From Octopus sinensis (taxonomy: Eukaryota): a stretch of 64,000 bases of DNA. Position numbers and translations under genes: made by a program. Shown piece after piece: positions 18,651-64,000 of this stretch (the stretch's first letter is position 1; each line of letters begins with the position of its first letter). The notes under the pieces are model-generated. The model was not told where the DNA came from. It made no database searches and was given only the letters and a program-made list of their open reading frames with translations. The stretch is from NCBI RefSeq assembly GCF_006345805.1, contig NW_021836294.1, forward strand, positions 11,208-75,207. The letters run 5' to 3'.

Positions 18651-18894
18651 GCATAACGCATTCTACAACCATATACATTACGCTGCGTTGCAGGAAATGG
18701 ACATAAAGAGGTAATTAAAACAGCAGCATCACCACCATCAGCATCATCACCCCCACCACCACCACCACCACCATTGCCGACGACAACACAGCACATTTAC
18801 GACAATTAAAGCTACCATCCTTACCCTACCCCACCACCACTACGTCTACTGTTGCTGCTACTACTACTACTACTAGTAACACAATTATGGTAAT

Positions 18895-32631: not shown

Positions 32632-33335
32632 TAATTTTCTATTCTCCAACTTCAGCTTTCGATTAAGTAAACCAAGAAACCAAATATACTTCTTAATCAC
32701 CAAGGAAACAAATTGGATAAGAAGATGGTGGTGAAAAACTCTTTTCTTGATAAAAGACTTAGATTAGTATTTAGGGATTTCAAAGTAGGATTTAGATGGT
32801 CCCAAAGACAGAAGTCGATCTGGAGAAGGAGAACATGGAAGAGAGTTTTCAACTTGCAATGCGTTGAAACAAATATTAAAACAGCTAGCTATGTATCATA
32901 CTTAACGTGAATACGTCATTACAAGGCAAGTTACCGTGGTATTCGTCCAGAAATAACATCTTTTACGGGTCTGTTGTGCTTTAAAATACTATATATATCA
33001 GAGAGAAACGAAAATAGTCTCAGCAGCGGTCAGTGAGTATACTCGATGTATTCTGCTTTTGTGGCGTCGTCAATGGCGTATATTCTCAGCCATTCATATG
33101 CCTAGGTAAGATATGTAGTCTCCGATATAATGGGAAGCACTGCTTGAATATAAATTATGAGGAATTATGTTTCTCAAAACCATAAAGGAGAAAGCTGATT
33201 CGAAGACTACAGATCCAAACCATCACTGGAATTGTACAAATCTGTAAAACTTGCCAGAAGTTTATCGTTTAAGTATTATAATTGCGAATAAGCCCCAGCT
33301 GAATAAAAGTGTCACAGAAGCAGTATTAGATTAAA

Positions 33336-33566
33336 GGCGGCGAGCTGGCAGAACCGTTAGCACGCCGGGCGAAATGCTTAGCGGTATTTCGTCTGTCGCT
33401 AAGTTCTGAGTTCAAATTCCGCCGAGGTCGACTTTGCCTTTCATCCTTTCGGGGTCGATAAATTAAGTACCAGTTACGCACTGGGGTCGATATAATCGAC
33501 TTAATACCTATGTCTGTCCTTGTTTGTCCCCTCTGTGTTTAGCCCCTTGTGGGTAATAAAGAAATA
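33336..33566 (+). mobile_element. SINE family B, full-length monomer with TSD
   Basis: tRNA-like A box (tggcagaaccgttag) and B box (gagttcaaattcc). TSD agtattagattaaa at 33322-33335 and 33567-33580. Confidence 0.92.
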
Positions 33567-33806
33567 AGTATTAGATTAAAGGTATTAGTTGATGCCTTTG
33601 AGGAAATAGGATAGAAGATAGAAACCTATTGCGCAGGGGATAACTAGAAGGTCCTGCAAAATAAGTTTGCTTGTAGTGACTGACCAGACATGGCGAAGTA
33701 AACGTGAGGTAACCTCCTCGAATCACATCGACTCATAAGGGCCGGTTTCCTGATTCCACGGCGTATATATTACCCACCTGGATAGGACGCCAGTCCGTCG
33801 CAGGTT

Positions 33807-35054: not shown

Positions 35055-35326
35055 ATAATGGTTTCCAATTTTGCCACAAGGGCAGCCATTCTTTGGGTGG
35101 TGGGGAGAGGAGTAGTCATTTAATAATGGTTTCCAATTTTGCCACAAGGGCAACCATTCTTTGGGTGGTGGGGAGAGGAGTAGTCGTTTAATAATGGTTT
35201 CCAATTTTGCCACAAGGGCAACCATTCTTTGGGTGGTGGGGAGAGGAGTAGTCGTTTAATAATGGTTTCCAATTTTGCCACAAGGGCAACCATTCTTTGG
35301 GTGGTGGAGAGAGGAGTAGTCGTTTA
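35055..35326. repeat. 68-bp tandem repeat x4 derived from a SINE tail
   Basis: Units start at 35055, 35123, 35191 and 35259; the array runs into family B sequence at about 35327. Confidence 0.9.
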
Positions 35327-35494
35327 AATCGACGCCAGTGCGTAACTGGTACTTAATTTATCGGGACCGCGATCCTACGTCCGCGAGTCCGTTGCCCTAA
35401 CCACGGGGCCATTGCGCCTCCACACGACTTACATAGAATACAAGTACCAGTATATATACACGTACGTACATATATATTACATATGTGTGCAGGT

Positions 35495-36426: not shown

Positions 36427-36943
36427 AATGTTATAGAGCAAAACATGCGAAGTGCATATTGCATGCGTCCTCTGCCTGTCAAACAAATGTACAGTAATAT
36501 AAGTATTGGTGACATGTGTCACATGCTGTGAACCTAAAAATCGCAGTTGCAACATTTTAGAATAGAAAGGGCAAACGTTTATCCAGACGAGCAATTTTCT
36601 TGCCACGAATGGCTAAAACAATTCTTCCAGCATTCAACGAGTGTCACCAACATTCAGTCTGCAGGGCCAAATGTCGTTAAACAAAACCTTAGTGAGAGTC
36701 TCGACTGATTCACATTAAAACCAGGCAACAATATGTCGCGTAATTTGACATCCGAGATGCAAGAGATAACAGAACGTTCGGTTTAGGAGATAATTAACAG
36801 TTACGAAAACTTGTCATCAAGAGAAAAAAAAATGCATAGATTGGAGATAACAAAATAACTAGATGCAATATGGTGAGTCTACACACACGCACACACTTGA
36901 GCGAACTTGACTACTCAGTCAAACTTCCGTGCATATAAATATA

Positions 36944-37370
36944 TATTTCTTTACGACCCACAAGGGGCTAAGCATAGAGGGGACAAACAAGGTCAGACAA
37001 AGGGATTAAGTCGATTACATCGACCCCAGTGCGAAACTGGTACTTTATTTATCGGCCCCAAGAGGATGAAAGGCAGAGTCGACCTCGGTGGAATTTGAAC
37101 TCAGAACGTAACGACAGACGAAATACCTATTTCTTTATTACCCACAAGGGGCTAAACATATAGGGGACAAACGGATTAAGTCTATTATATCGATATAAGG
37201 ATTAAGTCGATTACATCGACCCCAGTGCGAAACTGGTACTTTATTTATCGGCCCCCAAGAGGATGAAAGGCAAAGTCGACCTCGGCGGTATTTGAACTCA
37301 GAACGTAACGACAGACGAAATACCGCTAAGCATTTCGCCCGGCGTGCTAACGTTTCTGCCAGCTCGCCGC
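36944..37370 (-). mobile_element. SINE family B, head + 2 bodies
   Basis: Family consensus. Confidence 0.9.
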
Positions 37371-37483
37371 CTCGTGCATATAAATATATATACATACATA
37401 TATAAATGCCAACGCATGAAACTTGCGGACCCTGAGTCTTCTATATATGTGTGTGCGTGTCTGTGTGTGTGACAAGAAATAAT

Positions 37484-38282
37484 GGATCTTTTCCTTTTGA
37501 ACGGCACTTTGTAACACAATTTCTAGTTAACTAAACACTTTTAAACTTCGTATACTGGTAGAATGTGTTTATAAAACATCATTTTTTCTTGACTTTATTG
37601 AGAAAATTCTATAGTTTGTAAGATATTTCGTCTTTAATTTCGAGCATTTCGGCAATTTTAACCAATCGCTGACCTCCATTTAGGTAAACAACATTCCGTG
37701 CTGTCCCTCCTTTAAGAAACAGATTGGGTTTATTTACATTTGCGAAGAAAAAAGATACCCTAACCCTAACTCACCCTAACTCTAACCCTAAATCTAAAAT
37801 AGATTGAAATGCAATGGATCGATACTAGGGTTATAATTATGGGTGACAATTTCATACGACACCGCAACGGAAAATGGGATTTTTTTCTATTGGTGTCAAA
37901 TGAAAATGTCACCCATAATTATAACCCTAGTATCGATCTATTGCATTTCAATCTATTTTTAGATTTAGGGTTAGAGTTAGGGTGAGTTAGGGTTAGGGTA
38001 TCTTTTTTCTTCACAAATGTAAATAAACCCAATCTGTTTCTTAAAGGAGGGACATATTCATACAGCACGGAATGTTGTTTACCTAAATGGAGGTCAGCGA
38101 TTGGTTAAAATTGCCGAAATGCTCGAAATTAAAGATGAAATATCTTACAAACTATAGAATTTTCTCAATAAAGTCAAGAAAAAATGATGTTTTATAAACA
38201 CATTCTACCAGTATACGAAGTTTAAAAGTGTTTAGTTAACAAGAAATTGTGTTGAAAAGTGCCGTTCAAAAGGAAAAGATCC
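37484..38282. mobile_element. ~800-bp palindromic (foldback) MITE
   Basis: ~380-bp near-perfect inverted arms starting ggatcttttccttttgaacggc. TSD gaaataat at 37476-37483 and 38283-38290. Confidence 0.9.
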
Positions 38283-38750: not shown

Positions 38751-39447
38751 ATCAAACATTTGATCATATATAAATATGACCATGGTTCTTAAACATAAAA
38801 TATAATCATACAAAAACACAGAAGATAAAAAATATCCATGCGAATAAAATACAAATATATAGAACGGCCCATCAAAAATTTAATACAATCGACTAAAAAT
38901 TCTAAAGCGTATCATGCAACTAAAAATCTAAAAATAAAATAAAATATCAATCGACTAAAAAAAATTATTTCACACAAAAGAGAACGTTCAAAAAGTTCAA
39001 TTCATAAAACGATGGTTGGTTAGAGTCCAGGAGCAAAAAGAGTTCCACAAAATCAAATCAAACACACCTCTGGCCATTTCAGGAGTTCATTGACGCAGTT
39101 CGATCACAAAATGTATCTTGGCAATGACCCCTTCATTATGATGAACAGGAAACACACACAAAACAAAACCAAAAATGAGTTGTTTTTTTTTATTGCCCAC
39201 TAGGGGGCCAACATAGAGGGGACAACACAATCTGATTTTAGGGGTCAGATGAAGCATTATGACATAACATTGAAATGCAATTAAAAATTTAATACAAGAC
39301 ATATAAACGTATGATAAACGAAAGACAAAACGAATGGAGGGGTGAGGTGGGTTCAGCTCCGACCCCACGAGTCCCAATCCACCACTCATATCAGCAATGT
39401 ACTCCTGACATGTTCACATGGCTTACATCCACTCGCAACACTTGTGC

Positions 39448-39643
39448 GGTACTACAAGCGAACAGTGGTCCCGGTGCGCGCACTTGCGCGTCCTCGCTAG
39501 CTAGTTGTAAGTAGTCGATCCTACAATTTTTTTAACTAAGTAAATAAATTATTTTTATAAACAAACTAGGGTTAGGGTTAAAAAATTAGGGTTAGGTTTA
39601 GGGTTAAAAAGTCGTAGGATCGACTACTTACGATAGTAGTACC
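39448..39643. mobile_element. MITE with GGTAC termini and 9-bp TSD
   Basis: TSD cacttgtgc at 39439-39447 and 39644-39652. Internal IR gtaagtagtcgatcctac; ttaggg repeats. Confidence 0.85.
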
Positions 39644-39995
39644 CACTTGTGCCACGTACTTCCGGTACAAGCATCATAGACTGGACCCGGTTTGCGCACA
39701 CGCGCGTCCGTGCTAGCCAGACGTAGGCAGTCGATCCTACGAGCTGACTGGCGCATGCACGATATATACGATATATATACTTGTATCGATATATACGATA
39801 TATACTTGTATACGATATATACAATTCTGCAACAAAAATTGGATGGCGCTCACGACGGAAGATTAGCCCAAGCTATACGTGTTGTTATCTGTGATTAGAC
39901 GTTGAAATTTTGTTGTGTAAAGTGATTAATATCGCGCGAGGCGTTTGCCTCCACGTGTGGAAACCTTCCGAAGAAGGTGAATTGACCCTCTAGTC

Positions 39996-41098
39996 ATGGC
40001 GACTTACGCGGGGGTCACGGGAAAGAAAAATAATGATTCGTCGATAATCGTGAAGGATGTTTTCTTTGAGAAGAGTAAACTCAAAGAATATGAAAAACTA
40101 TTCAAAAGGGAGGGTGATAGCGTGAAGCTAATCCCCCCCCCCCCGCGAAAGCAAAAGAGGACAAAGAAAACAAGACTGTAACATATAGAACCCAAGACAA
40201 AAATACAAAGAAACTGGCAAGAGTGGAGATAGCAGAAATCGAAAAATGTCTGGGAGACATAATGGGGAAATCGACCTACGTGAGTAGAGGCAAGAAATTT
40301 GGTACGGTGGAGGTGAGATGTGCAACGGAAGAAATTGCAGCCTCACTGGCTACCACTGTACTAAGAGCGGAAACATTTATAATGTGGCCCTCATACAAGG
40401 GAAGAAGAGGGGTCCGGGTTAAAATCCCGAATATACCCCCAGAAGTGAAAACAGAATGGCTGGCAACAGCTATTCTAGGAGCAGCAGAAGAGGAAGTGGA
40501 GGTGGAATCCTTTAAGGAGTCCAACGCGATAAACTGGAGAGGATATGGGGTAGAACTGTGTTTGATGGCCACAAAAGAGGACATTGAAAGGTTCCCCTAC
40601 AGAATAGAAATTGAAGATGAGAAAACCCTCAGTGTAATTGTAGAGGGAAGAAAGCCAAACTGCTACTTGTGCGGGACAAGGGGGCACATTAAAAAAGAGT
40701 GCCCGTTATACGAATTCGTAGCGGAGTACGAGCAGGAACTTGAAGAAAAGAAGAATACTGTAAATGAAAAAGAAAACATAGAAAAGGAAACAAAACAACA
40801 AGAGAAAGGAAATAATAAGTCAATGAAGGAAAAAGAAATAAAAGAAAAGAAAGAAATAGAACCAAAACAGAGTCAGGAAAAAAAAAGGAAAAAGAAACAA
40901 CAGGAAAAAAACAAGAGAGAGATCAGAATCAAACGAAAAGAAAAGATGGCACACAAAAAGAAAAAGAAAAGGAACATAAAACACGAGAGAAAGAGAGAAC
41001 AGACAAAGAACCAAAAAGACAAGAGAAGGAAGAAGAAAGAAAAGAAGGCAAAAAGAGAGAAAGAGAGAAACAAAGAGAGGAGAACAAGGAAGAAATAA
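39996..41098 (+). CDS. LINE ORF1/gag-like nucleic-acid-binding protein with CCHC zinc knuckle and K/E/R-rich tail (frameshift in a C12 run)
   Basis: Start MATYAGVT; frames join across C12 at 40133-40144; RVKIPNIPPEV and V.VEGRKPNCYLCGTRGHIKKECP (Cx2Cx4Hx4C at 40661-40702) are typical of L1/Tx1-group ORF1. Confidence 0.75.
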
Positions 41099-41102
41099 GC
41101 CC

Positions 41103-41405
41103 GAAAAGAAAAACGAGGAAAACGTAGGACGGAAACAAGATTACCGCTTCTACAAGTTAGTAACCTTCCATTTCTGCCCTGAAATGAAAGAATTGACATG
41201 TAATACGGAGGGACATATATGGGTCAACAGGATGACCGATCAGTGGCAGGAGACTGCTCTAATCCCCGAAGAAAGAGTCGCTGAGTTCCTCAGAGCTGCC
41301 GGAGAGAGTGTAATATTTTACACGAGTGTTCGAGTGAGAGAGCGGCTGCCTGAGGGCTCAGTGATTGACTTTAGAGAATTGAAAGCTATTATGGAATACG
41401 TATAG
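41103..41405 (+). CDS. Open frame of ~100 codons, probably the frameshifted C-terminal domain of ORF1; function unknown
   Basis: Non-repetitive, globular-looking sequence YRFYKLVTFHFCPEMKELTCNTEGHIWVNRM...DFRELKAIMEYV inside the TSD-bounded element. Confidence 0.5.
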   Translation, partial: EKKNEENVGRKQDYRFYKLVTFHFCPEMKELTCNTEGHIWVNRMTDQWQETALIPEERVAEFLRAAGESVIFYTSVRVRERLPEGSVIDFRELKAIMEYV

Positions 41406-42087
41406 AAGTGTGAGAAGAGAGAGAAGAAAGAAGAAAAAGAAAAAGAAAATTTTGTGAAATATATGACGAAAATGTAACCTCTCGATTCCGGGGATCGAGT
41501 GGGCATTTACATCTCATTGTAAATATTCTTTCATATGTCATTTTTTACTTTTATTTTTTCCTTTTCTTGTCATTCGCTTTCTTATTTTAAGTTCCCCGAT
41601 TGTATTGTCCCCTCTATGTTCGCCCCTTGTGGGTAATAATAAAATCACGATATATACAAGTATATATCGTATATATCGTGCATGCGCCAGTCAGCTCGTA
41701 GGATCGACTGCCTACGTCTGGCTAGCACGGACGCGCGTCTGCGCGTGTGCACAAACCGGGTCCAGTCTACGATACTAGTACCCGTACTTCCATCTATCAT
41801 TGAGCATTTTCTCCGACAGGCACCTCCTCTCCAGCCACACGAAGTATCTCTGAAGACCGAGGCCAGAGACGAAGCTGCCTGTCGTTATTCCTTTCATTCT
41901 CATCTTTTATACAGTCTCTTTCGCGATTTCTACTACTATGAGAAAACAATTCTTACCTTCGTTCGACAGGAAACCAGGTGGGTCAATTTTTTTAATTGAT
42001 TCTGACGATAGCTGTACTCTTTCTGCACAAGACAACAGATGTTCCGCATAAGCCTCCGGCACCTCATAGCACTGAACGGTTTTGTTT

Positions 42088-43160
42088 CATTATTGCCCTT
42101 AAAGGCGCACAAAGAGGGGGACAACACAATATGAACGGGGTCATATACAATCGTATGGGTTTAAAAATTTATGACAAATGATTAACGAATGGAACGCAAA
42201 AAAAAAAAACATTTACATATACGAAAATAATACAATGAGGTATTAAAAACAGGTCAGCTTCGGCCCCACGAGCCCTGTCTTTAAAACCTATTTCTTTACT
42301 ACCCACAACGGGCTAAACACAGAGGGGACAAACAAGGACAGACATAGGTATTAAGTCGATTATATCGACTCCAGTGCGTAACTGGTACTTAATTTATCGA
42401 CCCTGAAAGGATGAAAGGCAAAGTCGACCTCGGCGGAATTTGAACTCAGAACGTAGCGGCAGACGAAATACCTATTTCTTTACTACACACAAGGGGCTAA
42501 ACACAGAGAGGACAAACAAGGACAGACAAACGGATTAAGTCGATTACATCGACCTCAGTGCGTAACTGGTACTTAATTTATCGACCCCGAAAGGATGAAA
42601 GGCAAAGTCGACCTCGGCGGAATTTGAACTCACAACGTAACGACAGACGAATTACGGCTACGCATTTCGCCCGGCGTGCTAACGTTTCTGCCAGCTTGCC
42701 CTGTCTTTAATACCGACACCTTGATAATCTTTCTGGCGTATTCACGCAGGGCCTTTCACTCTCAGCATACGTGCCACACGCGTCCATTTTTTTTTTAACG
42801 CACGCTTTGACAGGCACCTCCTTTCCAGACCCACCTTCATTTTAAGGTGAAAGGTAAAAACATTCACCAGGGCGAGGCCGGAGACGAAGCTGTCTGTCAC
42901 AATCCCTTTTATCCTTGACTTCCATATCACCTCTAACGCAATTGCTATTACTACGAGAAAACAATTCCTTACCTTCTTCCGTAAGGAAATCCGTCGGGTT
43001 AATGTTTAGAATTGACTCGGGCGATAGCTGTACTCTTCTTCCATCTGACAACAGGTGTTCTGCGTAAACCCACACTTCTGAAATTCCCGGACACTGAACA
43101 CTAGCGTGCGGGACGGTTTCCCTATCCCGTCCGCATCATAGACAGATAGGTGACACACTC
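42088..43160 (-). mobile_element. Second Tx1/L1-like LINE 3' fragment (ORF2 CCHC finger to tail)
   Basis: PICL*CGRDRETVPHASVQCPGISEVWVYAEHLL..IWKSRIKG..LERRCLS..KWTRVARMLRV; tail at 42088-42130. Confidence 0.8.
42285..42697 (-). mobile_element. SINE family B, head + 2 bodies, with TSD
   Basis: TSD gccctgtctttaa at 42272-42284 and 42698-42710. Confidence 0.92.
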
Positions 43161-44120: not shown

Positions 44121-44646
44121 CATATTTCGTTTTTGGATTTGGTTTGCAAGATTCTTTATATGAGTTCGTGTGTTGAAGCATATTCTGTTGTGTCTGGGGA
44201 GAGTCATTTTCTTTTTGTGCCTTATGATTTAACACACTCGCCGGTAAAATTTCCACTTATTTCTTATTTTTATTTTCCTAAAATTTTGGTTGCGTCTTGC
44301 AACCTTTTCAATAGTCTTGACTCTGTCCCTTATTTACACTGCGTTCCCTTTTGTTTGTTTGTGCGCATGTGTGTGGGTTAGTGTGTGTGTGTGCCTATGC
44401 ATGCATGCACGTACGTATGTATGTATGTGTTGATGTGTGTATTTATGTATCCATGTGTGTGTATGTATATATGTATGCATATGTATGTATGTATTCTGCA
44501 TATTCATGTTCTTGTATGTCCGTATTTGTGTATTTGTTATGTGTGGTGTGTGTGTTAGCGTGTGTTTGTATATATGTGCACCTCTGTCTCCTTGTGTGTG
44601 CATGTGTGTTGTGCAACTATTATTATTATTATTATTATTATTATTA

Positions 44647-46487
44647 CAAACAAGGACAGACAGACGGATCAAGTTGACTATATCGACCCGAGTGCGTAAC
44701 TGGTACTTTTTTAATCGACCCCGAAAGGATGATAGGCAAAGTCGACCTCGGCGGAATTTGAACTCAGAACGTAGCGGCAGACGAAATACCTATTTCTTTA
44801 CTACCCAGAAGGGGCTAAATATAGAGAGGACAGACAAGGACAGACAAAGGGATTAAGTCGATTATATCGACTCCAGTGCTAAACTGGTACTTTTTAAATC
44901 GACCCCGAAAGGATGATAGGCAAAGTCGACCTCGGCGGAATTTGAACTCAGAACGTAGCGGCAGACGAAATACCTATTTCTTTACTACCCAGAAGGGGCT
45001 AAATATAGAGAGGACAGACAAGGACAGACAAAGGGATTAAGTCGATTATATCGACTCCAGTGTGTAACTGGTACTTTTTAAATCGACCCCGAAGGGATAG
45101 GCAAAGTCGACCTCGGCGGAATTTGAACTCAGAACGTAGCGGCAGACGAAATACCTATTTCTTTACTACCCAGAAGGGGCTAAATATAGAGAGGACAGAC
45201 AGGACAGACAAAGGGTTAAGTCGATTATATCGACTCCAGTGTGTAACTGGTACTTTTTAAATCGACCCCGAAAGGATGATAGGCAAAGTCGACCTCGGCC
45301 GGAATTGAACTCAGAACGTAGCGGCAGACGAAATACCTATTTCTTTACTACCCAGAAGGGGCTAAATATAGAGAGGACAGACAAGGACAGACAAAGGGAT
45401 TAAGTCGATTATATCGACTCCAGTGCTAAACTGGTACTTTTTAAATCGACCCCGAAAGGATGATAGGCAAGTCGACCTCGGCGGAATTTGAACTCAGAAC
45501 GTAGCGGCAGACGAAATACCTATTTCTTTACTACCCAGAAGGGGCTAAATATAGAGAGGACAGACAAGGACAGACAAAGGGATTAAGTCGATTATATCGA
45601 CTCCAGTGCTAAACTGGTACTTTTTAATCGACCCCGAAAGGATGATAGGCAAAGTCGACCTCGGCGGAATTTGAACTCAGAACGTAGCGGCAGATGAAAT
45701 ACCTATTTCTTTACTACCCACAAGGGGCTAAATATAGAGAGGACAGACAAGGACAGACAAAGGGATTAAGTCGATTATATCGACTCCAGTGCTAAACTGG
45801 TACTTTTTAAATCGACCCCGAAAGGATGATAGGCAAAGTCGACCTCGGCGGAATTTGAACTCAGAACGTAGCGGCAGATGAAATACCTATTTCTTTACTA
45901 CCCACAAGGGGCTAAATATAGAGAGGACAGACAAGGACAGACAAAGGGATTAAGTCGATTATATCGACTCCAGTGCTAAACTGGTACTTTTTAAATCGAC
46001 CCCGAAAGGATGATAGGCAAAGTCGACCTCGGCGGAATTTGAACTCAGAACGTAGCGGCAGATGAAATACCTATTTCTTTACTACCCAGAAGGGGCTAAA
46101 TATAGAGAGGACAGACAAGGACAGACAAAGGGATTAAGTCGATTATATCGACTCCAGTGCTAAACTGGTACTTTTTAAATCGACCCCGAAAGGATGATAG
46201 GCAAAGTCGACCTCGGCGGAATTTGAACTCAGAACGTAGCGGCAGATGAAATACCTATTTCTTTACTACCCACAAGGGGCTAAATACAGAGAGGACAAAC
46301 AAGGACAGACAAAGGGATTAAGTCGATTATATCGACCTCAGTGCGTAACTGGTACTTTTTTAATCGACCCCGAAAGGATGAAAGGCAAAGTCGACCTCGG
46401 CGGAATTTGAACGCAGAACGTAACGGCAGACAAAATACTGCTAAGTATTTCGCCTGGCGTGCTAACGTTTCTGCCAGCTCGCCGCCT
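44647..46487 (-). repeat. SINE B-derived tandem array, head + ~10 units of ~184 bp
   Basis: Units share the variants gatgatagg and gactccagtg; single head at 46432-46487. Confidence 0.95.
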
Positions 46488-46686
46488 TGGAGTGCATTAT
46501 TAATGTTTACAGTCCCTACCTATTATTGCCATTTCCCTTAATATGCCAATGCCAAGCTTTTGGTAATCCGTCATTCTGTTTGTGCAAATAATAAACAGAA
46601 TAACAGACTCATTTCTCACCTACCATTACGTTTTCAGTTCAACATTTAGGACGATGTCATTTTTGTTTTCTTTTAATTTTACTACT

Positions 46687-47101
46687 ACTACTACTACTAC
46701 TACTACTATGGCAATCCCTCAAGGTCGAGGATGATGGTCTTCGCGCAAATTCATTGGTGAGTCCGCAGGTGACTGATAAGACCAATTCTTGCTCGAAAAG
46801 ATCGGTCACAGTGCGGACATCTAGTGCCGAAAGGGAGAGTCGTACGTGGTGGTTGTTGGCGCTCCTTACGTCGTCGTCTTTTCTCCTCCAGCTCTGCAGA
46901 CCTTTTCGACTCGAAATTCGCCGTTCCCTCATGGATGGTGGTCTTCCAGAGTGGTCTGTGTTTTGCCGTTTCCTCCCAGTTAGTGAAATCGATGTCACAC
47001 TTTTTGAGGTTCGTTTTCAGGGAGTCCTTGTAGCGTTTCTTCTGGCCTCTTTTTGTACGCTCGCCGTCTTTGAGTTGGGAGTAGAAGATCTGTTTGGGAA
47101 C
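46687..47101 (-). mobile_element. RTE-clade (BovB-like) LINE, 5'-truncated, with TSD
   Basis: PKQIFYSQL..G.R..GQKKRYKDSLK..WEETA..R..W..C2H2 finger (CPHCDRSFRARIGLISHLRTH); (TAG)n tail; TSD taattttactact at 46674-46686 and 47102-47114. Confidence 0.92.
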
Positions 47102-47225
47102 TAATTTTACTACTCGCTTGTACACAACGTTATAATCATTTGGTATTTTTAAGTTATCAATTAGTGCGTTCTTGTCATTTATTGCCATGGAGACTGATAC
47201 CAATCTTACTAATTAGTACTTCGTG

Positions 47226-47612: not shown

Positions 47613-47940
47613 AAAGCAGTGAGTTGACAGAACCGTTAGCATCCTTTCGGGGTCGATTAAAAAAGTACCATTTACGCACTGGGGTCGATGTAATCGACTT
47701 AATTCGTTTGTCTGTTCTTGTTTTTCCTCACTGTGTTTAGCCCCTTGTGGGTAGTAAAGAAATAGAAATAGGTATTTCGTCCGTCTTGGCTTTCTGAATT
47801 GAAAATCCGTCGAGGTTGACTTTGCCTTTAATTCTCTGAAGTCGATAAAACAAGTACCAGTTGAGTTCTGAGGTCGACGTAATCGATTTTTCACCTCCCC
47901 AGAAATTCGTAACCCTGGGCCAAAATTTGAAACCAATATT
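47613..47940 (+). mobile_element. Deleted SINE B joined to an alternative-tail body
   Basis: Family B blocks; tail gggccaaaatttgaaacc. Confidence 0.75.
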
Positions 47941-49485: not shown

Positions 49486-49862
49486 TTAAGCTATTTCGTG
49501 TCTTCTGTGAATTTTGTTTGGGGGTTTGTATCCAATATTTTGAACCAACTGATAACGATTGTTGCTCCCATTTCGAGGCCTAATTCCAGCTCTGATGTAA
49601 ACGTTGATATTTCGTAAGATATTGCTTATCAACCTCATTTCTATTTTCGCTGGGTTTATTAATCTACATTTAGGGTTAGTTGCGAAGTCTACCTTGTGAT
49701 CCTTTAAAGTGAGATAAGCCACATATTCAAACCTCTTATCTAAGTTAATCAACTCAGTTATGTGCTTGTCCTCCTCATAAGTTATTTCTGTGATTATTAG
49801 TTGTTTTCTGAAGAAGAAGTTGTTATGTTTATTCTCCTCTGTTTCATAGAGGTTATTGGTCT

Positions 49863-49870
<8 letters not shown>
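49486..49870 (-). pseudogene. Penelope-like element RT N-terminal fragment
   Basis: AYLTLKDHKVDFATNPKCRLINPAK matches the Penelope AF.TLKDHK.NF...P.CRLINPAK motif. Confidence 0.85.
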
Positions 49871-49901
<31 letters not shown>

Positions 49902-50045
49902 ACGCATTATTCGAAGACCTAAACTTCATTACATCAACGTTACACTTACGAAAGATAATGTTTACTGTTAAGTAGAAGAGAATGGCTTTGGAGACACGAG
50001 TTCCTATAATATTGTTCAGTGGCAAGGTATGGTTCTCGGTTTATA

Positions 50046-53000
50046 GGCGGCGAGCTGTCAGAGACGTTAGCACGCCGGGCGAAATGCTAAGCGGTATTTC
50101 GTCTGCCGTTACGTTCTGAGTTCAAATTCCGCCGAGGTCGACTTTGCCTTTCATCCTTTCGGGGTCGATAAACAAAGTACCAGTTACTAACTGGGGTCGA
50201 TGTAATCGACTTAATCCGTTTGTCTGTCCTTGTTTGTCCTCTCTGTATTTAACCCCTTCTGGGTAGTAAAGAAATAAGAAACGTTAGCACGCCGGGCGAA
50301 ATGCTTAGCGGTATTTCGTCTGCTGTTACGTTCTGAGTTCAAATTCCGCCGAGGTCGACTTTGCCTTTCATCCTTTCGGGGTCGATTAAATAAGTACCAG
50401 TTACGCACTGGGATCGATATAATCGATTTAATCCCTTTGTCTGTCCTTGTTTGTCTCCTCTATGTTTAGCCCCTTGTGGGTAGTAAAGAAATAAGTATTT
50501 CGTCTGCCGCTACGTTCTGAGTTCAAATTCCGCCGAGGTCGACTTTGCCTTTCATCCTTTTAGGGTCGATTAAATAAGTACCAGTTACTCACTGGGGTCG
50601 ATGTAATCGACTTAATCCATTTGTCTGTCCTTGATTGTCCCCTCTGTGTGTAGCCCCTTGTGGGTAGTAAAGAAATAGGTATTTCGTCTGCCGCTACGTT
50701 CTGAGTTCAAATTCCACTGAGGTCGACTTTGCCTTTCATCTTTTCAGGGTCGATTAAATAAGTACCAGTTACTCACTGGGGTCGATATAATCGACTCAAT
50801 CCGTTTGTCTGTCCTTGTTTGTCCTCTCTGTGTGTAGCCCCTTGTGGGTAGTAAAGAAATAGGTATTTCGTCTGCCGCTACGTTCTGAGTTCAAATTCCA
50901 CTGAGTTGACTTTGCCTTTCATCTTTTCAGGGTCGATTAAATAAGTACCAGTTACTCACTGGGGTCGATATAATCGACTCAATCCGTTTGTCTGTCCTTG
51001 TTTGTCCTCTCTGTGTGTAGCCCCTTGTGGTAGTAAAGAAATAGGTATTTCGTCTGCCGCTACGTTCTGAGTTCAAATTCCACTGAGGTTGACTTTGCCT
51101 TTCATCTTTTCAGGGTCGATTAAATAAGTACCAGTTACTCACTGGGGTCGATGTAATCGACTCAATCCGTTTGTCTGTCTTGTTTGTCCTCTCTGTGTGT
51201 AGCCCCTTGTGGTAGTAAAGAAATAGGTATTTCGTCTGCCGCTACGTTCTGAGTTCAAATTCCACTGAGGTTGACTTTGCCTTTCATCTTTTCAGGGTCG
51301 ATTAAATAAGTACCAGTACTAGTTACTCACTGGGGTCGATATAATCGACTCAATCCGTTTGTCTGTCCTTGTTTGTCCTCTCTGTGTGTAGCCCCTTGTG
51401 GGTAGTAAAGAAATAGGTATTTCGTCTGCCGCTACGTTCTGAGTTCAAATTCCACTGAGGTTGACTTTGCCTTTCATCTTTTCAGGTCGATTAAATAAGT
51501 ACCAGTTACTCACTGGGGTCGATATAATCGACTCAATCCGTTTGTCTGTCCTTGTTTGTCCTCCTGTGTGTACCCCTTGTGGGTAGTAAAGAAATAGGTA
51601 TTTCGTCTGCCGCTACGTTCTGAGTTCAAATTCCACTGAGGTTGACTTTGCCTTTCATCTTTTCAGGGTCGATTAAATAAGTACCAGTTACTCACTGGGG
51701 TCGATATAATCGACTCAATCCGTTTGTCTGTCCTTGTTTGTCCTCTCTGTGTGTAGCCCCTTGTGGGTAGTAAAGAAATAGGTATTTCGTCTGCCGCTAC
51801 GTTCTGAGTTCAAATTCCACTGAGGTTGACTTTGCCTTTCATCTTTTCAGGGTCGATTAAATAAGTACCAGTTACTCACTGGGGTCGATATAATCGACTC
51901 AATCCGTTTGTCTGTCCTTGTTTGTCCTCTCTGTGTGTAGCCCCTTGTGGGTAGTAAAGAAATAGGTATTTCGTCTGCCGCTACGTTCTGAGTTCAAATT
52001 CCACTGAGGTTGACTTTGCCTTTCATCTTTTCAGGGTCGATAAATAAGTACCAGTTACTCACTGGGGTCGATATAATCGACTCAATCCGTTTGTCTGTCC
52101 TTGTTTGTCCTCTCTGTGTGTAGCCCCTTGTGGGTAGTAAAGAAATAGGTATTTCGTCTGCCGCTACGTTCTGAGTTCAAATTCCACTGAGGTTGACTTT
52201 GCCTTTCATCTTTTCAGGTCGATTAAATAAGAGTTACCAGTTACTCACTGGGGTCGATATAATCGACTCAATCCGTTTGTCTGTCCTTGTTTGTCTCTCT
52301 GTGTGTAGCCCCTTGTGGGTAGTAAAGAAATAGGTATTTCGTCTGCCGCTACGTTCTGAGTTCAAATTCCACTGAGGTTGACTTTGCCTTTCATCTTTTC
52401 AGGGTCGATTAAATAAGTACCAGTTACTCACTGGGGTCGATATAATCGACTCAATCCGTTTGTCTGTCCTTGTTTGTCCTCTCTGTGTGTAGCCCCTTGT
52501 GGGTAGTAAAGAAATAGTATTTCGTCTGCCGCTACGTTCTGTGAGTTCAAATTCCCTGAGGTTGACTTTGCCTTTCATCTTTTCAGGGTCGATTAAATAA
52601 GTACCAGTTACTCACTGGGGTCGATGTAATCGACTCAATCCGTTTGTCTGTCCTTGTTTGTCCTCTCTGTGTGTAGCCCCTTGTGGGTAGTAAAGAAATA
52701 GGTATTTCGTCTGCCGCTACGTTCTGAGTTCAAATTCCACTGAGGTTGACTTTGCCTTTCATCTTTTCAGGGTCGATTAAATAAGTACCAGTTACTCACT
52801 GGGGTCGATATAATCGACTCAATCCGTTTGTCTGTCCTTGTTTGTCCTCTCTGTGTGTAGCCCCTTGTGGGTAGTAAAGAAATAGGTATTTCGTCTGCCG
52901 CTACGTTCTGAGTTCAAATTCCACTGAGGTTGACTTTGCCTTTCATCTTTTCAGGATCGATTAAATAAGTACCAGTTACTCACTGGGGTCGATATAATCG

Positions 53001-55275
53001 ACTCAATCCGTTTGTCTGTCCTTGTTTGTCCTCTCTGTGTGTAGCCCCTTGTGGGTAGTAAAGAAATAGGTATTTCGTCTGCCGCTACGTTCTGAGTTCA
53101 AATTCCACTGAGGTTGACTTTGCCTTTCATCTTTTCAGGGTCGATTAAATAAGTACCAGTTACTCACTGGGGTCGATATAATCGACTCAATCCGTTTGTC
53201 TGTCCTTGTTTGTCCTCTCTGTGTGTAGCCCCTTGTGGGTAGTAAGAAATAGGTATTTCGTCTGCCGCTACGTTCTGAGTTCAAATTCCACTGAGGTTGA
53301 CTTTGCCTTTCATCTTTTCAGGGTCGATTAAATAAGTACCAGTTACTCACTGGGGTCGATATAATCGACTCAATCCGTTTGTCTGTCCTTGTTTGTCCTC
53401 TCTGTGTGTAGCCCCTTGTGGGTAGTAAAGAAATAGGTATTTCGTCTGCCGCTACGTTCTGAGTTCAAATTCCACTGAGGTTGACTTTGCCTTTCATCTT
53501 TTCAGGGTCGATTAAATAAGTACCAGTTACTCACTGGGGTCGATATAATCGACTCAATCCGTTTGTCTGTCCTTGTTTGTCCTCTCTGTGTGTAGCCCCT
53601 TGTGGGTAGTAAAGAAATAGGTATTTCGTCTGCCGCTACGTTCTGAGTTCAAATTCCACTGAGGTTGACTTTGCCTTTCATCTTTTCAGGGTCGATTAAA
53701 TAAGTACCAGTTACTCACTGGGGTCGATGTAATCGACTCAATCCGTTTGTCTGTCCTTGTTTGTCCTCTCTGTGTGTAGCCCCTTGTGGGTAGTAAAGAA
53801 ATAGGTATTTCGTCTGCCGCTACGTTCTGAGTTCAAATTCCACTGAGGTTGACTTTGCCTTTCATCTTTTCAGGGTCGATTAAATAAGTACCAGTTACTC
53901 ACTGGGGTCGATATAATCGACTCAATCCGTTTGTCTGTCCTTGTTTGTCCTCTCTGTGTGTAGCCCCTTGTGGTAGTAAAGAAATAGGTATTTCGTCTGC
54001 CGCTACGTTCTGAGTTCAAATTCCACTGAGGTTGACTTTGCCTTTCATCTTTTCAGGGTCGATTAAATAAGTACCAGTTACTCACTGGGGTCGATATAAT
54101 CGACTCAATCCGTTTGTCTGTCCTTGTTTGTCCTCTCTGTGTGTAGCCCCTTGTGGGTAGTAAAGAAATAGGTATTTCGTCTGCCGCTACGTTCTGAGTT
54201 CAAATTCCACTGAGGTTGACTTTGCCTTTCATCTTTCAGGGTCGATTAAATAAGTACCAGTTACTCACTGGGGTCGATATAATCGACTCAATCCGTTTGT
54301 CTGTCCTTGTTTGTCCTCTCTGTGTGTAGCCCCTTGTGGTAGTAAAGAAATAGTATTTCGTCTGCCGCTACGTTCTGAGTTCAAATTCCACTGAGGTTGA
54401 CTTTGCCTTTCATCTTTTCAGGGTCGATTAAATAAGTACCAGTTACTCACTGGGGTCGATATAATCGACTCAATCCGTTTGTCTGTCCTTGTTTGTCCTC
54501 TCTGTGTGTAGCCCCTTGTGGGTAGTAAAGAAATAGGTATTTCGTAAGCCGCTACGTTCTGAGTTCAAATTCCACTGAGGTCGACTTTGCCTTTCATCTT
54601 TTCAGGGTCGATTAAATAAGTACCAGTTACTCACTGGGGTCGATGTAATCGACTTAATCCGTTTGTCTGTCCTTGTTTGTCCTCTCTGTGTGTAGCCCCT
54701 TGTGGGTAGTAAAGAAATAGGTATTTCGTCTGCCGCTACGTTCTGAGTTCAAATTCCACTGAGGTCGACTTTGCCTTTCATCTTTTCAGGGTCGATTAAA
54801 TAAGTACCAGTTACTCACTGGGGTCGATATAATCGACTCAATCCGTTTTGTCTGTCCTTGTTTGTCCTCTCTGTGTGTAGCCCCTGTGGTAGTAAAGAAA
54901 TAGGTATTTCGTCTGCCGCTACGTTCTGAGTTCAAATTCCACTGAGGTTGACTTTGCCTTTCATCTTTTCAGGGTCGATTAAATAAGTACCAGTTACTCA
55001 CTGGGGTCGATATAATCGACTCAATCCGTTTGTCTGTCCTTGTTTGTCCTCTTCTGTGTGTAGCCCCTTGTGGGTAGTAAAGAAATAGGTATTTCGTCTG
55101 CCGCTACGTTTCTGAGTTCAAATTCCACTGAGGTTGACTTTGCCTTTCATCTTTTCAGGGTCGATTAAATAAGTACCAGTTACTCACTGGGGTCGATATA
55201 ATCGACTCAATCCGTTTGTCTGTCCTTGTTTGTCCTCTCTGTGTGTACCCCCTTGTGGGTAGTAAAGAAATAGGT
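50046..55275 (+). repeat. SINE B-derived satellite: one full head followed by about 28 units of ~183 bp
   Basis: Homogeneous units with diagnostic ccactgaggttgac, catcttttcagg, gactcaatcc. Confidence 0.97.
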
Positions 55276-55530
55276 ATTCACGTGGCTAACATGAACCTTA
55301 TGCTAAATATCTGTATTTCACAAGAACAGCGTAGAGATATATTTAACGCTGTGTTTCAATCACAATATATGTGTGTGTGTGTGTAATAATCTTTTATATG
55401 TTTCATAAGGTGTGACTATATATGGTATATATGTGTATGAGTGCTTTGTATGGATGTATATGTTTGAGCGCGTGTGCTTTTGTGTGTATGGCATGTGCAT
55501 ACGTCGCTCAAAAGCCCAAATGCGAGCAAG

Positions 55531-57216: not shown

Positions 57217-57379
57217 TGCCAACACAGCCGCTGAGCAGTTTCCGTCTGCTACTGATATATCTTTATGCTTTCTAACACTGTACTATCTCAGGACAAATAC
57301 CACAGTGAATTAGTCTTCCGATAACGTATATGCATTAAGTATGATACGCAGATCACTCGTTTAAAATAATACTGCTTCT

Positions 57380-57976
57380 TATTTTTTTATTACCCACAAG
57401 GGGCTAAACATAGAGAGGACAAACAAGGACAAGCAAACGGATTAAGTCGATTACATCGACCCCAGTGCGTAACGGGTACTTAATTTATCGATCCCGAAAG
57501 GATGAAAGGCAAAGTCGACCTCGGCGGAGTTTGAACTCAGAACGTAAAGTCAGACGAAATACTCATTTCTTTACAACCCACAAGGGGATAAACACAAAAG
57601 GGACAAACAAGGACAGACAAACGGATTAAGTCGATTATATCGACCTTAGTGCGTAACTGGACCTTAATTTATCGACCCCGAAAGGATGAAAGGCAAAGTC
57701 GACCTCGGTGGAATTTGAACTCAGAACGTAAAGTCTGACGAAATACTCATTTCTTTACTACCCACAAGGGGCTAAACACAAAAGGGACAAACAAGGACAG
57801 ACAAACGGATTAAGTCGATTATATCGACCCCAGTGCGTAACTGGTACTTAATTTATCGATCCCGAAATGATGAAACGCAAAGTCGACCTCGGCGGAATTT
57901 GAACTCAGAACGTAACAGGAGACAAAATACCGCTAAGCATTTCGCCCGGCGTGCTAACGTTTCTGCCAGCTCGCCG
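57380..57976 (-). mobile_element. SINE family B, head + 3 bodies
   Basis: Flanked by taatactg(c/a)ttct. Confidence 0.9.
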
Positions 57977-58480
57977 TGCAACTAATACTGATTCTGTTAC
58001 ACACAACGAATTTTTATTCAAACAACTGCCTAATTGTAACGTAAGTGACTTTTCCATTACTGCTTTTCTTTATCAGAAGTGACTGATTCCGTCTTAGCAT
58101 GCTGTCATCAGAAGATACTTGCTACTGACGAAACTCAAACAAGAAATGTACATTTCACAATGACACCACAGGACGATTTTAGTCTACTACTTCTATACTT
58201 TTGAGTTATTTAGCATTGTATGTTGCATAAGAGATACTACCTCGAGACGAATACCGCCGTTAATTTAGGCTTTGTATGATGTATCTGCTTTAAGTAACCA
58301 TCACCGATTGCTCTGTAAATAAGCTTTTGAAATCTGGGTAGAAGTGTGGCTGGTTTTTAAGTAGGCGACCCTAAAGATTCACTCTCTCTTTGTATTTTAA
58401 AAACGTGTTCACATCTGTACGGCAGCTGATCTCTAAAATACTGCAGAGGAATAAGTGTATCTGCGTGCAAGTGTATACGC

Positions 58481-60159: not shown

Positions 60160-61607
60160 TTGGTGGTGGTCGTGGCAGAGTTGTCCGTAGTATACGTTGA
60201 CTGTGAAGGTGTGGTCTGGGTTCTTCCAATTCTTCGTGTGTCGGCGTCCATGCTCGCACCTGCACCTGTCTCACTCCTCCCCTTCTTTCCCTCCCTCGTG
60301 AAGCAGTGGGGAAGGGGAGGGAAATCAACGTCGTAAGCGTTGTCAAGGAGACCACCGTTCTTCTCGAAGAACGACTTCATGGCTTTGAAGTCGCCATGCT
60401 CAAAGCAGAAAATGGCTAGGAAAGCCGAAGACGAATTTTAAAAAATGGGGAAACACGCCACACAAAGGCAGGTTTCCCGTGCAAAGAATTTGCACAACTG
60501 AATGTATTTTGTATTTATTAGTTGTTGCACAATAGACGTCATTGATTAGTTGAAATTGCAGAAGAAAAACCAGCAAATATCTTACAAACTCTAGAATTTT
60601 CTGAATAAAGCCAAGAGAAAAAAATGTTTTATTTTGACAGATTCTACGAGGATACGAAGTTTAAAATTATTTTGAGAAGAACGGTGGTCTCCATGACAAC
60701 GCTTCACAGTTGCATGTGTGAGCCTGGACGCCGACACACGGAAAATTGGTGGTGTTGGTTGTGGTGGTGGTGGTGGTGGTGATGATGGTGGTGGTGATGA
60801 TGGTGGTGATGGTGATGGTGGTGGTGGTGGCGGTGGTGATGATGATGGTGGTGGTGGAGTTGGTGATGTTGGTGGTAGTGGAGTTCGTGGTGGTGGTGGT
60901 GGTGATGGTGGTGGTGGTGGTGCGATGGTGGTGGTGGTGGTGGTGGTGATGGTGGTGGTGGTGGTGGTGGTGGCGATGGTGGTGGTGGTGGTGATGGTGG
61001 TGGTGATGGTGGCGGTGATGGTGGTGATGGTGGTGGTGAAGGTGGTGGTGGTGGTGGTGGTTGTGGTGGCGTTGATGGTGGTGTTGATTGTGGCGGCGAT
61101 GGTGGTGGTGATGGTGGTGGCGGCGATGGTGGTGGCGGCGATGGTGGTGGTGATGGTGGCGGCGATGGTGGTGGTGATGGTGGTGGTGGTGGTGATGGTG
61201 GTGGTGGTGGTGATGGTGGTGGTCGTCGTGCTGGTGGTCGTCGTGGCAGACTTGTCCGTAGTAGTCCTTGACTGTGAAGCTGTCGTCTGGGTTCTTCCAA
61301 TTCTTCGTGTGTCGGCGTCCATTCTCGCACGTGCACCTGTGTTGCTCCTCCCCTTCTTTCCCTCCCTCGTGAAGCAGTGGGGAAGGGGAGGGGAGGGAAA
61401 TCAACGTCGTAAGCGTTGTCAAGGAGACCACCGTTCTTCTCGAAGAACGACTTCATGGCTTTGAAGTCGCCATGCCCAAAGCAGAAAATGGCTAGGAAAG
61501 CCGAAGACGAATTTACAAAATGGGGAAACACGCCACACAAAGGCAGGTTTCCCGTGCAAAGAATTTGCACAACCGAATGTATTTTGTATTTATTAGTTGT
61601 TGCACAA
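60160..61607. repeat. Direct duplication (60160-60532 / 61232-61607) enclosing a MITE fragment, an inverted piece and a (GGT/GAT)n tract
   Basis: Shared ccaattcttcgtgtgtcggcgtcca...ggtttcccgtgcaaagaatttgcac; (GGT)n at 60748-61240. Confidence 0.85.
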
Positions 61608-62268: not shown

Positions 62269-62328
62269 GAGGGGCGTTCAATAAGTAATGCCCCTGACCC
62301 ACTTCCCATAGCAGTAGAGCAACGAAAC
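62268..62328 (+). mobile_element. mariner-like terminal fragment
   Basis: TA + cgaggggcgttcaataagtaatgc resembles mariner TIRs; no second end found. Confidence 0.55.
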
Positions 62329-64000
62329 TCGGCGGAGTTTGAACTCAGAACGTAAAGTCAGACGAAATACTCATTTCTTTACTACCCACAAGGGGATAAA
62401 CACAAAAGGGACAAACAAGGACAGACAAACGGATTAAGTCGATTATATCGACCCCAGTGCGTAACTAGTACTTAATTCATCGACCCCGAAAGGATGAAAG
62501 GCAAAGTCGACCTCGGTGGAATTTGAACTCAGAACGTAACGGCAGATGAAATACCGCTAAGCATTTCGCCCGGCGTGCTAACGGTTCTGCCAGCTCGCCG
62601 TGCAACTAATACTGATTCTGTTACACACAACGAATTTTTATTGAAACGGCCGCCTAATTGTAACGTCAGTGACTTTTCCATTACTGCTTTTCTTTATCAG
62701 AAGTGACTGATTCCGTCTTAGCATGCTGTCATCAGAAGATACTTGCTACTGACGAAAATCAAAGAAGAAATGTACATTTCACAATGCCGCCACAGGACGA
62801 TTTTAATCTACTACTTCTATACTTTTGAGTTATTTAGCATTGTATGTTACATAAGAGATACTACCTCGAGACGAATACCGTTGTTAATTTAGGCTTTGTA
62901 TGATGTATCTGCTTTAAGTAACCATCACCGATTGCTCTGTAAATAAGCTTTTGAAATCTGGGTAGAAGTGTGGCTGGTTTTTAAGTAGGCGACCCTAAAG
63001 ATTCACTCTCTCTTTGTATTTTAAAAACGTGTTCACATCTGTACGGCAGCTGATCTCTAAAATACTGCAGAGGAATAAGTGTATCTGCGTGCAAGTGTAT
63101 ACGCATGTATGTATGTATGTATGTATGTATGTATGTATGTATGTATGTATGTATGTATGTATGTATGTATGTATGTATGTATGTATGTATGTATGTATGT
63201 ATGTATGTATGTATGTGTATGTATGTATGTATGTATGTATGTATGTATGTATGTATGTATGTATGTATGTATGTAGTATTATGTATGTATGTAGTATGTA
63301 TGTATGATGTATGTCTGTATGTATGTATGTATGTATGTATGTTATGTATGTATGTATGTATGTATGTATGTATGTATGTATGTATGTATGTATGTATGTA
63401 TGATGTATGTATGTATGTATGTATGTATGTATGTATGTATGTATGTATGTATGTATGTATGTATGTATGTATGTATGTATGTATGTATGTATGTATGTAT
63501 GTATGTATGTATGTATGTATGTATGTATGTATGTATGTATGTATGTATGTATGTATGTATGTATGTATGTATGTATGTATGTATGTAGTATGTATGTATG
63601 TATGTATGTATGTATGTATGTATGTATGTATGTATGTAGGTATGTATGTATGTATGTATGTATGTATGAGTATGTATGTATGTAGTATGTATGTATGTAT
63701 GATGTATGTATGTATGTATGTATGTATGTATGTATGTATGTATGTTGTATGTAGTATGTAGTATGTATGTATGTATGTATGTATGTATGTATGTATGTAT
63801 GTATGTATGTATGTATTATGTATGTATGTATGTATGTATGTATGTATGTATGTATGTATGTATTATGTTGCGTGTATGTATGTATGTATTATGGTTGCGT
63901 GTGTGTATGTATATATATGTTTGTGTGTATATATACATATATCTTAATACATGCACATATAATTGTATCTGCGTGCATATGTATACCTATGTATGTATTT
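62328..64000 (+). repeat. Local segmental duplication of about 57520-58890
   Basis: Same SINE B variants (cggagtttg, cgtaaagtcag, aatactcatttc), same unique flank and (TATG)n tract, in the same order. Confidence 0.9.

Follow-up and report, generated by a model that had tools for sequence, protein, structure and literature searches.

Organization of the locus

The subject of this analysis is a short interspersed element (SINE) found mostly in multimeric or nested form in a window of 64,000 nucleotides (nt) of Octopus sinensis DNA (contig NW_021836294.1, positions 11,208 to 75,207). The element, here called family A, is a 231-nt RNA polymerase III (Pol III) SINE of Octopus. All ten loci at which an earlier sequence-only reading had noticed multimers are indeed multimers of this SINE, although 62328, a segmental duplicate of 57380 (90.8% over 1,324 bp), is not an independent locus. 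Altogether, 12 loci bear the family A tail; counting the duplicated pair once leaves 11 independent loci, of which 10 are multimeric or nested, the sole monomer lying at 33336. The mechanistic evidence comprises this 64-kb window and summary tables of four sequencing runs, with four target sites, a small sample. Loci are named by window position, positions within the SINE are given as nt, and a slash in a target marks the cut; the targets quoted are the upstream, target-derived copies of target-site duplications (TSDs). The largest array is built as follows:

50046-55272, forward strand: array of 28 units, 5,227 bp
50046-50276, forward: unit 1, the full 231-nt SINE
50277-50493, forward: unit 2, nt 15-231, attached through the minor tail-to-nt 15 junction; 0 variants in common with unit 1
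50494-55272, forward: 26 bodies of nt 48-231 with a 184-nt period; 26 runs of four T (T4) on the sense strand
55273-55278, forward: outer 3' flank GGTATT; no matching upstream TSD

The remaining loci with a family A tail are:

33322-33580, forward: sole intact monomer (33336-33566); TSD 14-16 bp, target C/AGTATT
42275-42714, reverse: heterodimer (42289) inside the 3' untranslated region (UTR) of a LINE of the partner family described below; TSD 14-17 bp (1 mismatch), target C/GGTATT
36928-37388, reverse: dimer (36944); TSD 16-19 bp, AT-rich target T/ATATAT, off the motif defined below; its units have 2 locus-private variants in common
57364-57995, reverse: trimer (57380); TSD 16 bp (2 mismatches), target C/AGAATC
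62328-62602, reverse: dimer in the duplicated copy of the 57380 region, its second unit truncated at nt 91; the hybrid unit of 57380 is absent
47616-47935, forward: nested insertion (47640) at nt 48 of a sister-family host; young A fragment, nt 107-231
21822-22440, reverse: two A units (21873) within an old sister-family copy, with an nt 15 joint
19345-20119, reverse: three A units (19397) with 4 private variants in common, then a last unit from nt 48 with a sister-family tail
44646-46486, reverse: 10-unit array; interior units 2-9 homogenised, ends differ; last unit cut at nt 192
7918-8475, reverse: trimer, last unit cut at nt 213
10823-11189, reverse: headless dimer (10830) starting at nt 56; outer flank GGTATTT, no TSD

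Two structural claims of the sequence-only reading have to be narrowed. A fixed architecture of one head followed by n bodies does not hold throughout, since the 50046 array consists of a head, nt 15-231 and 26 copies of nt 48-231, the 10830 dimer is headless, and at 19397, 21873 and 47640 the last part belongs to a sister family whose tail is different. TSDs do enclose whole multimers at 42289, 36944 and 57380, whereas none was detectable at 50046, 10830, 44646 and 7918.

A recurrent junction at nt 48

Of the window's 56 visible SINE tails, 55 were recovered by the junction scan. After the tail, nt 48 of another unit followed in 47 of 55 cases, nt 15 in two (at 50276 and 22025) and outside DNA in six, while nt 1 followed in none. 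Among the 49 tail-to-SINE junctions, 47 are therefore at nt 48 and two at nt 15, and each of the 10 loci has at least one nt-48 junction. The nearly constant junction about 48 nt into the element, as first described, is thus borne out. Furthermore, the junction sequence GAAATA-GG-TATTTC is a true inverted repeat, and the proposed pairing of its second arm with the head was found between nt 50-55 and nt 36-41.

The same junction recurs in sequencing data. Contigs whose match starts at nt 48 with a tail just before it number at least 522 in run X9 (organism label D, agreement 0.64) and at least 475 in run X10 (label A, agreement 0.87). The tables hold the best 15 of 406 joint rows and the best 20 of 773 loose-end rows. 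Among the former, the tail is joined to nt 48-50 in at least 22 (X9) and 21 (X10) contigs over four rows, to nt 15 in at least 7 and 9, to nt 21 in at least 6 and 1, and to nt 68 in at least 14 and 3; the nt 68 joints probably represent sister-family bodies. Since contigs are not copies and these counts are lower bounds, the tables show recurrence rather than frequency; X10, being made of contigs whose RNA origin is a guess, provides no evidence of transcription. Two raw-read runs, X23 and X24, gave 15 and 228 matching reads per 12.9 million each and were left out of the frequencies because these counts lie far below the published SINE content. As a separate observation, comparison of X24 with window positions 33276-33635 brought out a unit of about 79 nt in which the tail is joined to nt 48-60 and then to nt 166-231 (45 and 28 reads). 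This second-generation repeat dominates the few X24 reads and is absent from the window and from the 15 X23 reads.

Anatomy and folding of family A

Family A comprises a head with a B box (nt 75-84), a central core and a LINE-derived tail (nt 185-231; LINE, long interspersed element). At least three further tail types in the window are attached to the same core, and the family A tail is its own. When heads were scanned with the standard A and B box patterns, the 33336 monomer was found to carry an A box at nt 11-21 and a B box at nt 75-84; one of the three heads scanned has both boxes, one only the B box and one, mutated, neither. ARAGORN found 0 tRNA genes and Rfam no tRNA match for the head at E up to 10, and the tRNA-like traits of the head are limited to its GGCGG/CCGCC ends and the two boxes. 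The tail common to a LINE and the TSDs at four loci agree with a tRNA-type SINE. The core may resemble the CORE domain of OR1/OR2; an OR1/OR2 reference sequence was not found in the files searched among the supplements of PMC4824008 and PMC4758252. The 4-8% divergence of family A fits a SINE and LINE burst at a Jukes-Cantor distance (JC) of 0.065 (PMC13282606). Pattern scans for the tail and core gave 0 matches in viral, prokaryote-genome and metagenome contigs.

Fold prediction places the boundary between nt 47 and 48 at the apex of a 13-bp hairpin, which bears on an explanation by the reverse transcriptase (RT) itself: within one insertion, RT would jump at nt 48 to the 3' end of its own template or of a different SINE RNA, or roll on a 184-nt circle or panhandle. 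Such copying would account for whole multimers inside TSDs at three loci and for the hairpin apex at the junction. Same-template copying would explain the private variants common to units at 36944 and 19397, and jumps between RNAs would explain the heterodimer at 42289. The tail can pair with nt 50-55, adjacent to the junction, and in body-only RNA of a long-array unit this panhandle has a probability of 0.63-0.88. However, the value for the 33336 body is 0.002, and in full-length RNA the predicted partner of nt 50-55 is the head (probability 0.999) and not the tail (0.0). A circular fold is no more stable than shuffled sequences (z 0.02). The hammerhead ribozyme core, CTGANGA, was absent from both strands of the two adjacent units scanned, and Rfam gave no match across head, body and junction. 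Moreover, jumping or rolling leaves unexplained the outside targets that resemble nt 48, the old heads upstream at 47640 and 21873, and the nt-15 junction. The suggestion of RT rolling on a pseudo-circular RNA thus finds little support, given the lack of a ribozyme and the sequestering of nt 50-55 in the head hairpin, and we regard one-insertion jumping or rolling in general as unlikely.

The partner LINE family

Three elements of a candidate partner LINE family lie in the window:

39824-41646, forward: element with open reading frame (ORF) 1 only; ORF1 at 40121-41406 with one frameshift; 13-bp TSD
42085-43130, reverse: 3' part of a LINE with broken ORF2 C-terminus, 3' UTR and related tail
39185-39380, reverse: third copy of the 3' UTR and tail

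The last 47 nt of the SINE (about nt 185-231) match the 3' end of the 39824-41646 element at 87% identity. The SINE tail also resembles the LINE ends at 39185 and 42085, and the LINE 3' UTRs align with one another. The ORF1 of the 39824-41646 element carries a zinc knuckle (zf-CCHC), with ZCCHC3-like RNA-binding domains as a lead below 0.9 only, and a window ORF is 97% identical to proteins of Octopus vulgaris-group genomes. In a HMMER search, the ORF2 C-terminus at 42085-43130 was 46% identical over 71 amino acids to the end of a 1,111-amino-acid protein (P0063) with Exo_endo_phos, RVT_1 and zf-RVT domains, whereas a word-indexed search with the same fragment gave no match. An ORF2 with endonuclease, RT and zinc motif beside a CCHC ORF1 is presumably the layout of the L1/Tx1 group. 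Through its relatives the partner family displays an APE endonuclease, an RT, a C-terminal zinc motif and the ORF1 CCHC knuckle, so that, as far as the sequences go, it fits the domain layout of a Tx1-like LINE. None of its 42 homologues is named Tx1; four carry a name, and none of these names gives a clade. No relative of the partner ORF2 was found in viral contigs.

Several observations surround this family. The 39824-41646 element is a LINE derivative without ORF2, and near-identical ORF1 proteins occur on several octopus chromosomes, which suggests a non-autonomous family that has multiplied. It sits in a ACGATATAT minisatellite at the centre of a pair of 122-bp inverted repeats (39664-39777 and 41661-41782, 90% identical), a structure that is probably a non-autonomous DNA transposon used as a target. 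Short TTAGGG-like repeats occur at 37760-37996 and 39558-39606, some of them within the ends of the palindromic element region. All SINE and LINE tail types (33546, 19373, 18918, 28101 and 35284; LINE end 41626) can form a hairpin with the loop CTTGT on differing stems, likely a recognition signal for LINE protein.

Two neighbours of the long arrays were considered and set aside. An RTE-like fragment (46751-47212) beside the 10-unit array was rejected as partner, not being among the SINE-tail matches. It is part of a LINE 3' fragment (46680-47212, reverse strand) that carries a C2H2 finger, has (GTA)n as its tail and lies 200 bp upstream of that array; we take this fragment to be of the RTE clade. 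Likewise, a Penelope-like stretch beside the 28-unit array gave no Pfam match and showed no link to the array; it is a broken frame (49486-50040, reverse strand) directly beside the array head that, to our eye, resembles a Penelope-like RT.

Target sites and the internal site

Outside targets were found to predict the internal junction. Three of the four TSD-defined SINE targets fit C/RGWATY. When the four-target profile was scored over 448 7-mers, the sense-strand site at nt 48 came out on top in the 33336 and 50046 heads, tied with nt 85 on the minus strand. In the 44646 head, which has A48, it ranked first without a tie, and in the 19397 head, which has C48, it took third place. Random four-site sets ranked nt 48 first in 0.36% of 20,000 trials with the 33336 copy. 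Furthermore, two of the four TSD starts match RGTATT, which has a background of 5e-4 per site (p 1.5e-6). The sequence-only reading had offered an endonuclease preference for RGTATT as one option, and its core survives in this prediction of nt 48, although the motif is looser (C/RGWATY, three of four) and not strict. In 50 kb of non-SINE window DNA the motif was counted 32 times. SINE heads occur in the window in numbers of similar order and could thus account for much of the supply of good targets. The conserved C before the cut cannot derive from annealing of the RNA and therefore points to an endonuclease, while the bases after the cut could come from either. The insertions do not share one fixed target as target-specific Tx1 elements do, and the specificity of the partner machinery is at most a loose preference. 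Beside these sites, a stretch upstream of the unrelated targets of 33336 and 57380 is common to both (cagaa-cagtattag, 14 of 15 positions; 33305-33335 and 57977-58010). It exceeds the 7-nt motif and could reflect an old repeat or a preference for a longer context.

The outer 3' flanks that had been said to resemble the internal site are present (agtatt at 33567, ggtatt at 55273, ggtattt at 10829-10823), and four of the six outer 3' flanks, or their TSD partners, start with RGTATT. This would suit an origin by DNA alone, in which insertion at RGTATT leaves 6-7 bp of microhomology between nt 48 and the 3' flank, and slippage or unequal exchange then duplicates nt 48-231. The geometry yields the observed unit, and array growth looks DNA-level in any case. 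Against this, the multimers at 36944 and 57380 have flanks without microhomology, and self-duplication cannot yield heterologous units (42289; units 1 and 2 at 50046, with 0 variants in common) or chimeras of A inside a sister family. A target preference would still be required at the start. A purely DNA-level origin appears improbable.

Nested insertions

A nested intermediate is visible at 47640. Upstream lies an old sister-family head (nt 1-26, 5 of 25 positions differing from the A majority), followed by a young A piece (nt 107-231, 10 of 125) with an extra GAAATA, and then by an old body that resumes at nt 48 and ends in another tail (26 of 119; 19% from the sister-family majority). Judged by its sequence, 47640 arose when genomic DNA received an insertion at nt 48 and lost 21 nt of the target. 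The extra GAAATA resembles the tail slippage that accompanies RT initiation in L2 and the I factor. At 21873 the nesting is at nt 15, with 4 of 14 differences in the head (nt 1-14), 7 of 217 in A unit 1 and 33 of 151 in the old body. Similarly, at 19397 three A units lie upstream of a sister-tailed body starting at nt 48. Heterologous units also speak for nesting: at 42289 a single TSD encloses two units of different subfamilies (unit 2 differs from the 33336 monomer by 3.3% and from its own unit 1 by 8.2%), and units 1 and 2 of the 28-unit array have no variant in common. The first, head-proximal unit is nearer to the family majority than the last at seven of eight untied loci of nine (p 0.07), a trend that would be expected if new units enter behind the head. 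Homology-guided 5' joining at an internal target site, one of the options first put forward, is supported by these nested sister copies together with the outside-target prediction and the partner LINE in the window.

Growth and homogenisation of the arrays

Long arrays are more uniform than short ones. In the 28-unit array, interior units 4-28 (25 units) carry on average 0.76 substitutions relative to their own consensus, and that consensus departs from the family majority at 12 sites; for the 10-unit array the corresponding values are 2.1 substitutions and 16 sites, with four private variants in the interior units compared. Within-locus distance was 0.022 for 28 units, 0.042 for 10 and 0.054-0.136 for 2-4 units. 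Homogeneity rises with array length, and cross-locus pairs have at most one exclusive variant in common (88 pairs). Many interior differences are single-base deletions, possibly long-read errors, and the 28-unit count is as assembled. Its 26 T4 runs, which begin in unit 3, would keep Pol III, started at the head, from transcribing the whole 28-unit array. Interiors that are nearly identical and carry private variants, together with these stops, indicate that the long arrays probably grew by DNA exchange, and a "programmed" SINE-to-satellite route, as it had been called, is overstated.

An exchange-like step may also be visible at 57380, which differs from its duplicate 62328 by one in-register hybrid unit. 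The middle unit of the trimer resembles the last unit at nt 48-63 and the first from nt 82 onward, with a crossover between nt 63 and 82; this fits unequal exchange or a second nested insertion with a 16-nt TSD.

Inheritance of the junction would be an alternative source of its constancy: one or a few multimeric source genes could be read through by Pol III and retrotransposed whole. Read-through is possible at the sole monomer and at four short multimers, all of them free of T4 runs, and TSDs do enclose multimers. In addition, at all five loci where units disagree at nt 64, the first unit has T and those downstream have C (p 0.06), a pattern that a dimeric master could give. On the other hand, first units are no closer to one another across loci (0.099) than last units (0.106) or first to last units (0.105), there are two junction types and chimeras with sister families, and the 88 cross-locus pairs show the near-absence of common exclusive variants noted above. 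Descent of all multimers from one multimeric master is not supported by these position-wise distances, and we consider a few such sources improbable as the general origin; several secondary multimeric sources are possible.

A model of nested seeding and DNA-level growth

Taken together, these results favour, with a rough probability of 0.6, a two-stage origin in which arrays are seeded by nesting of new copies into old copies of the same or a sister SINE and lengthened by DNA-level unequal exchange. The partner machinery would prefer C/RGWATY-like sites, of which the best on the sense strand of the SINE lies between nt 47 and 48, or between nt 14 and 15 in the T19 variant. A nick between nt 47 and 48 would prime RT, and with the tail copied first, the tail-to-48 junction would result. 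Because the complementary DNA (cDNA) shares homology with both the old head and the 14-17-nt target overhang, the 5' join could be scarless anywhere within that overlap, leaving a single visible head and an old TSD that encloses the whole multimer. Where homology is poor, as at 47640, the 5' join would fall on 2-3 nt and the event would stay visible. The 184-nt direct repeat would then expand and be homogenised by unequal exchange, and multimers without a T4 stop may, as a side route, be re-transposed whole.

Several observations weigh against this origin. At 42289, the two units differ at nt 48, 52 and 61, so unit 1 lacks a copy of the target's overhang, and there is no age gap between them (7 vs 7 differences). 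The private variants common to units at 36944 and at 19397 are not explained by a single foreign nested insertion without later exchange. The tendency of first units to be nearer to the family majority is a trend only and not significant. The motif itself derives from only four TSD-defined targets; 36944 is off it and RGTATT follows none of the three partner-family LINE 3' ends, so specificity is loose. Of the four monomers tested, only the T19 copy has nt 15 in first place, the other three ranking it 4-18, and the equally scoring minus-strand site at nt 85 has received no insertion in the window.

A stronger form is tentatively held as possible. Here the SINE would be self-trapping, most new copies entering old ones, and arrays would be extended behind the head by repeated retrotransposition, for which the locus's own transcript may serve as template. 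The hybrid unit at 57380, downstream-like at nt 48-63 and upstream-like in the rest, is the remnant expected of such an own-transcript insertion with a 16-nt TSD. If self-trapping is true, retrotransposition would be a recurrent machine for seeding and extending satellites across octopus genomes, and self-targeting would let the SINE gain copies and yet spare host DNA. In O. vulgaris, SINEs account for 11.6% of the genome (PMC13282606). If most family A copies are nested, copy counts, age landscapes and consensus libraries would be distorted.

Other repeats in the window

The window is rich in microsatellites. At 35055-35420 (reverse strand), a third SINE family with a different head and the same core has its 3' 68 nt as four tandem copies, a SINE-to-tandem conversion at another junction. 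Sister-family SINEs at 18880-19345 (reverse strand) stand head-to-tail, each inserted in the simple-repeat tail of its predecessor, and their tail-to-head joints also occur in run X9. Furthermore, a 208-bp direct repeat (60325-60532 and 61401-61607, 98% identity) flanks a (TGG)n tract.

Comparison with known systems

Family A resembles the tRNA-Core class, being an abundant octopus tRNA-type SINE whose core is common to families with different tails (PMC8967140). The octopus tRNA-CORE SINE OR1 goes back to Ohshima and Okada (1994, as cited in PMC4824008). Multimers are not mentioned in the parts covered of the octopus repeat papers PMC13282606, PMC8967140 and PMC4824008. Retrozymes of the non-LTR type (LTR, long terminal repeat) are likewise short non-autonomous retroelements in tandem arrays, which carry hammerheads and depend on Penelope-like elements (bioRxiv 10.64898/2026.07.22.740005), whereas the octopus SINE has no hammerhead core and its tail matches an endonuclease-RT LINE. 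The joint choice of site by RNA 3' end and endonuclease recalls the signature idea for RTE-related SINEs (Nishiyama and Ohshima 2018, PMC6007223); the signature itself, a run of T some 10 nt upstream of a TSD whose first base is T, was not seen at the octopus sites by inspection.

The closest outcome is that of the squamate SINE-derived satellites sSat1-3 (Vassetzky et al. 2023, PMC10702118), in which the tandem units fall short of the full SINE, a longer terminal unit extends to the SINE end, periods lie in the 150-180-nt range, longer arrays are more homogeneous, and a few variants are favoured. Correspondingly, the 28- and 10-unit octopus arrays have at least four middle monomers shorter than the SINE and a longer terminal unit, and their homogeneity rises with length. 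The squamate study treats unequal recombination and same-locus insertion in general terms, and "target site", "template", "rolling" and "microhomolog" have 0 occurrences in its main text; the factor favouring the change from SINE to satellite is there described as still to be found (PMC10702118). In the octopus, a mollusc, one can see a specific internal target site along with TSDs and nested intermediates, and a monomer, heterodimer, nested chimera, hybrid trimer, 10-mer and 28-mer stand side by side, together with one candidate cause.

In the literature searched, mostly outside subscription papers and repeat databases, self-targeting at an internal site was not found as a satellite seed. The outcome, a SINE-derived satellite, is already known, and the self-targeting seed mechanism is probable, on few sites. 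Its nearest mechanistic parallel is the crocodilian SINEU with its LINE Tx1-Mar (Kojima 2015, PMC4494074): in both, a SINE is trans-mobilised by a target-preferring LINE (Tx1 in SINEU, the candidate partner in the octopus), with sequential tandem insertion, TSDs and target truncations. SINEU targets Mariner-N4_AMi, and its tandem copies sandwich a TSD (PMC4494074), whereas the octopus SINE would carry the preferred site in its own head, and homologous 5' joining would hide the second head, thereby producing a ready tandem repeat.

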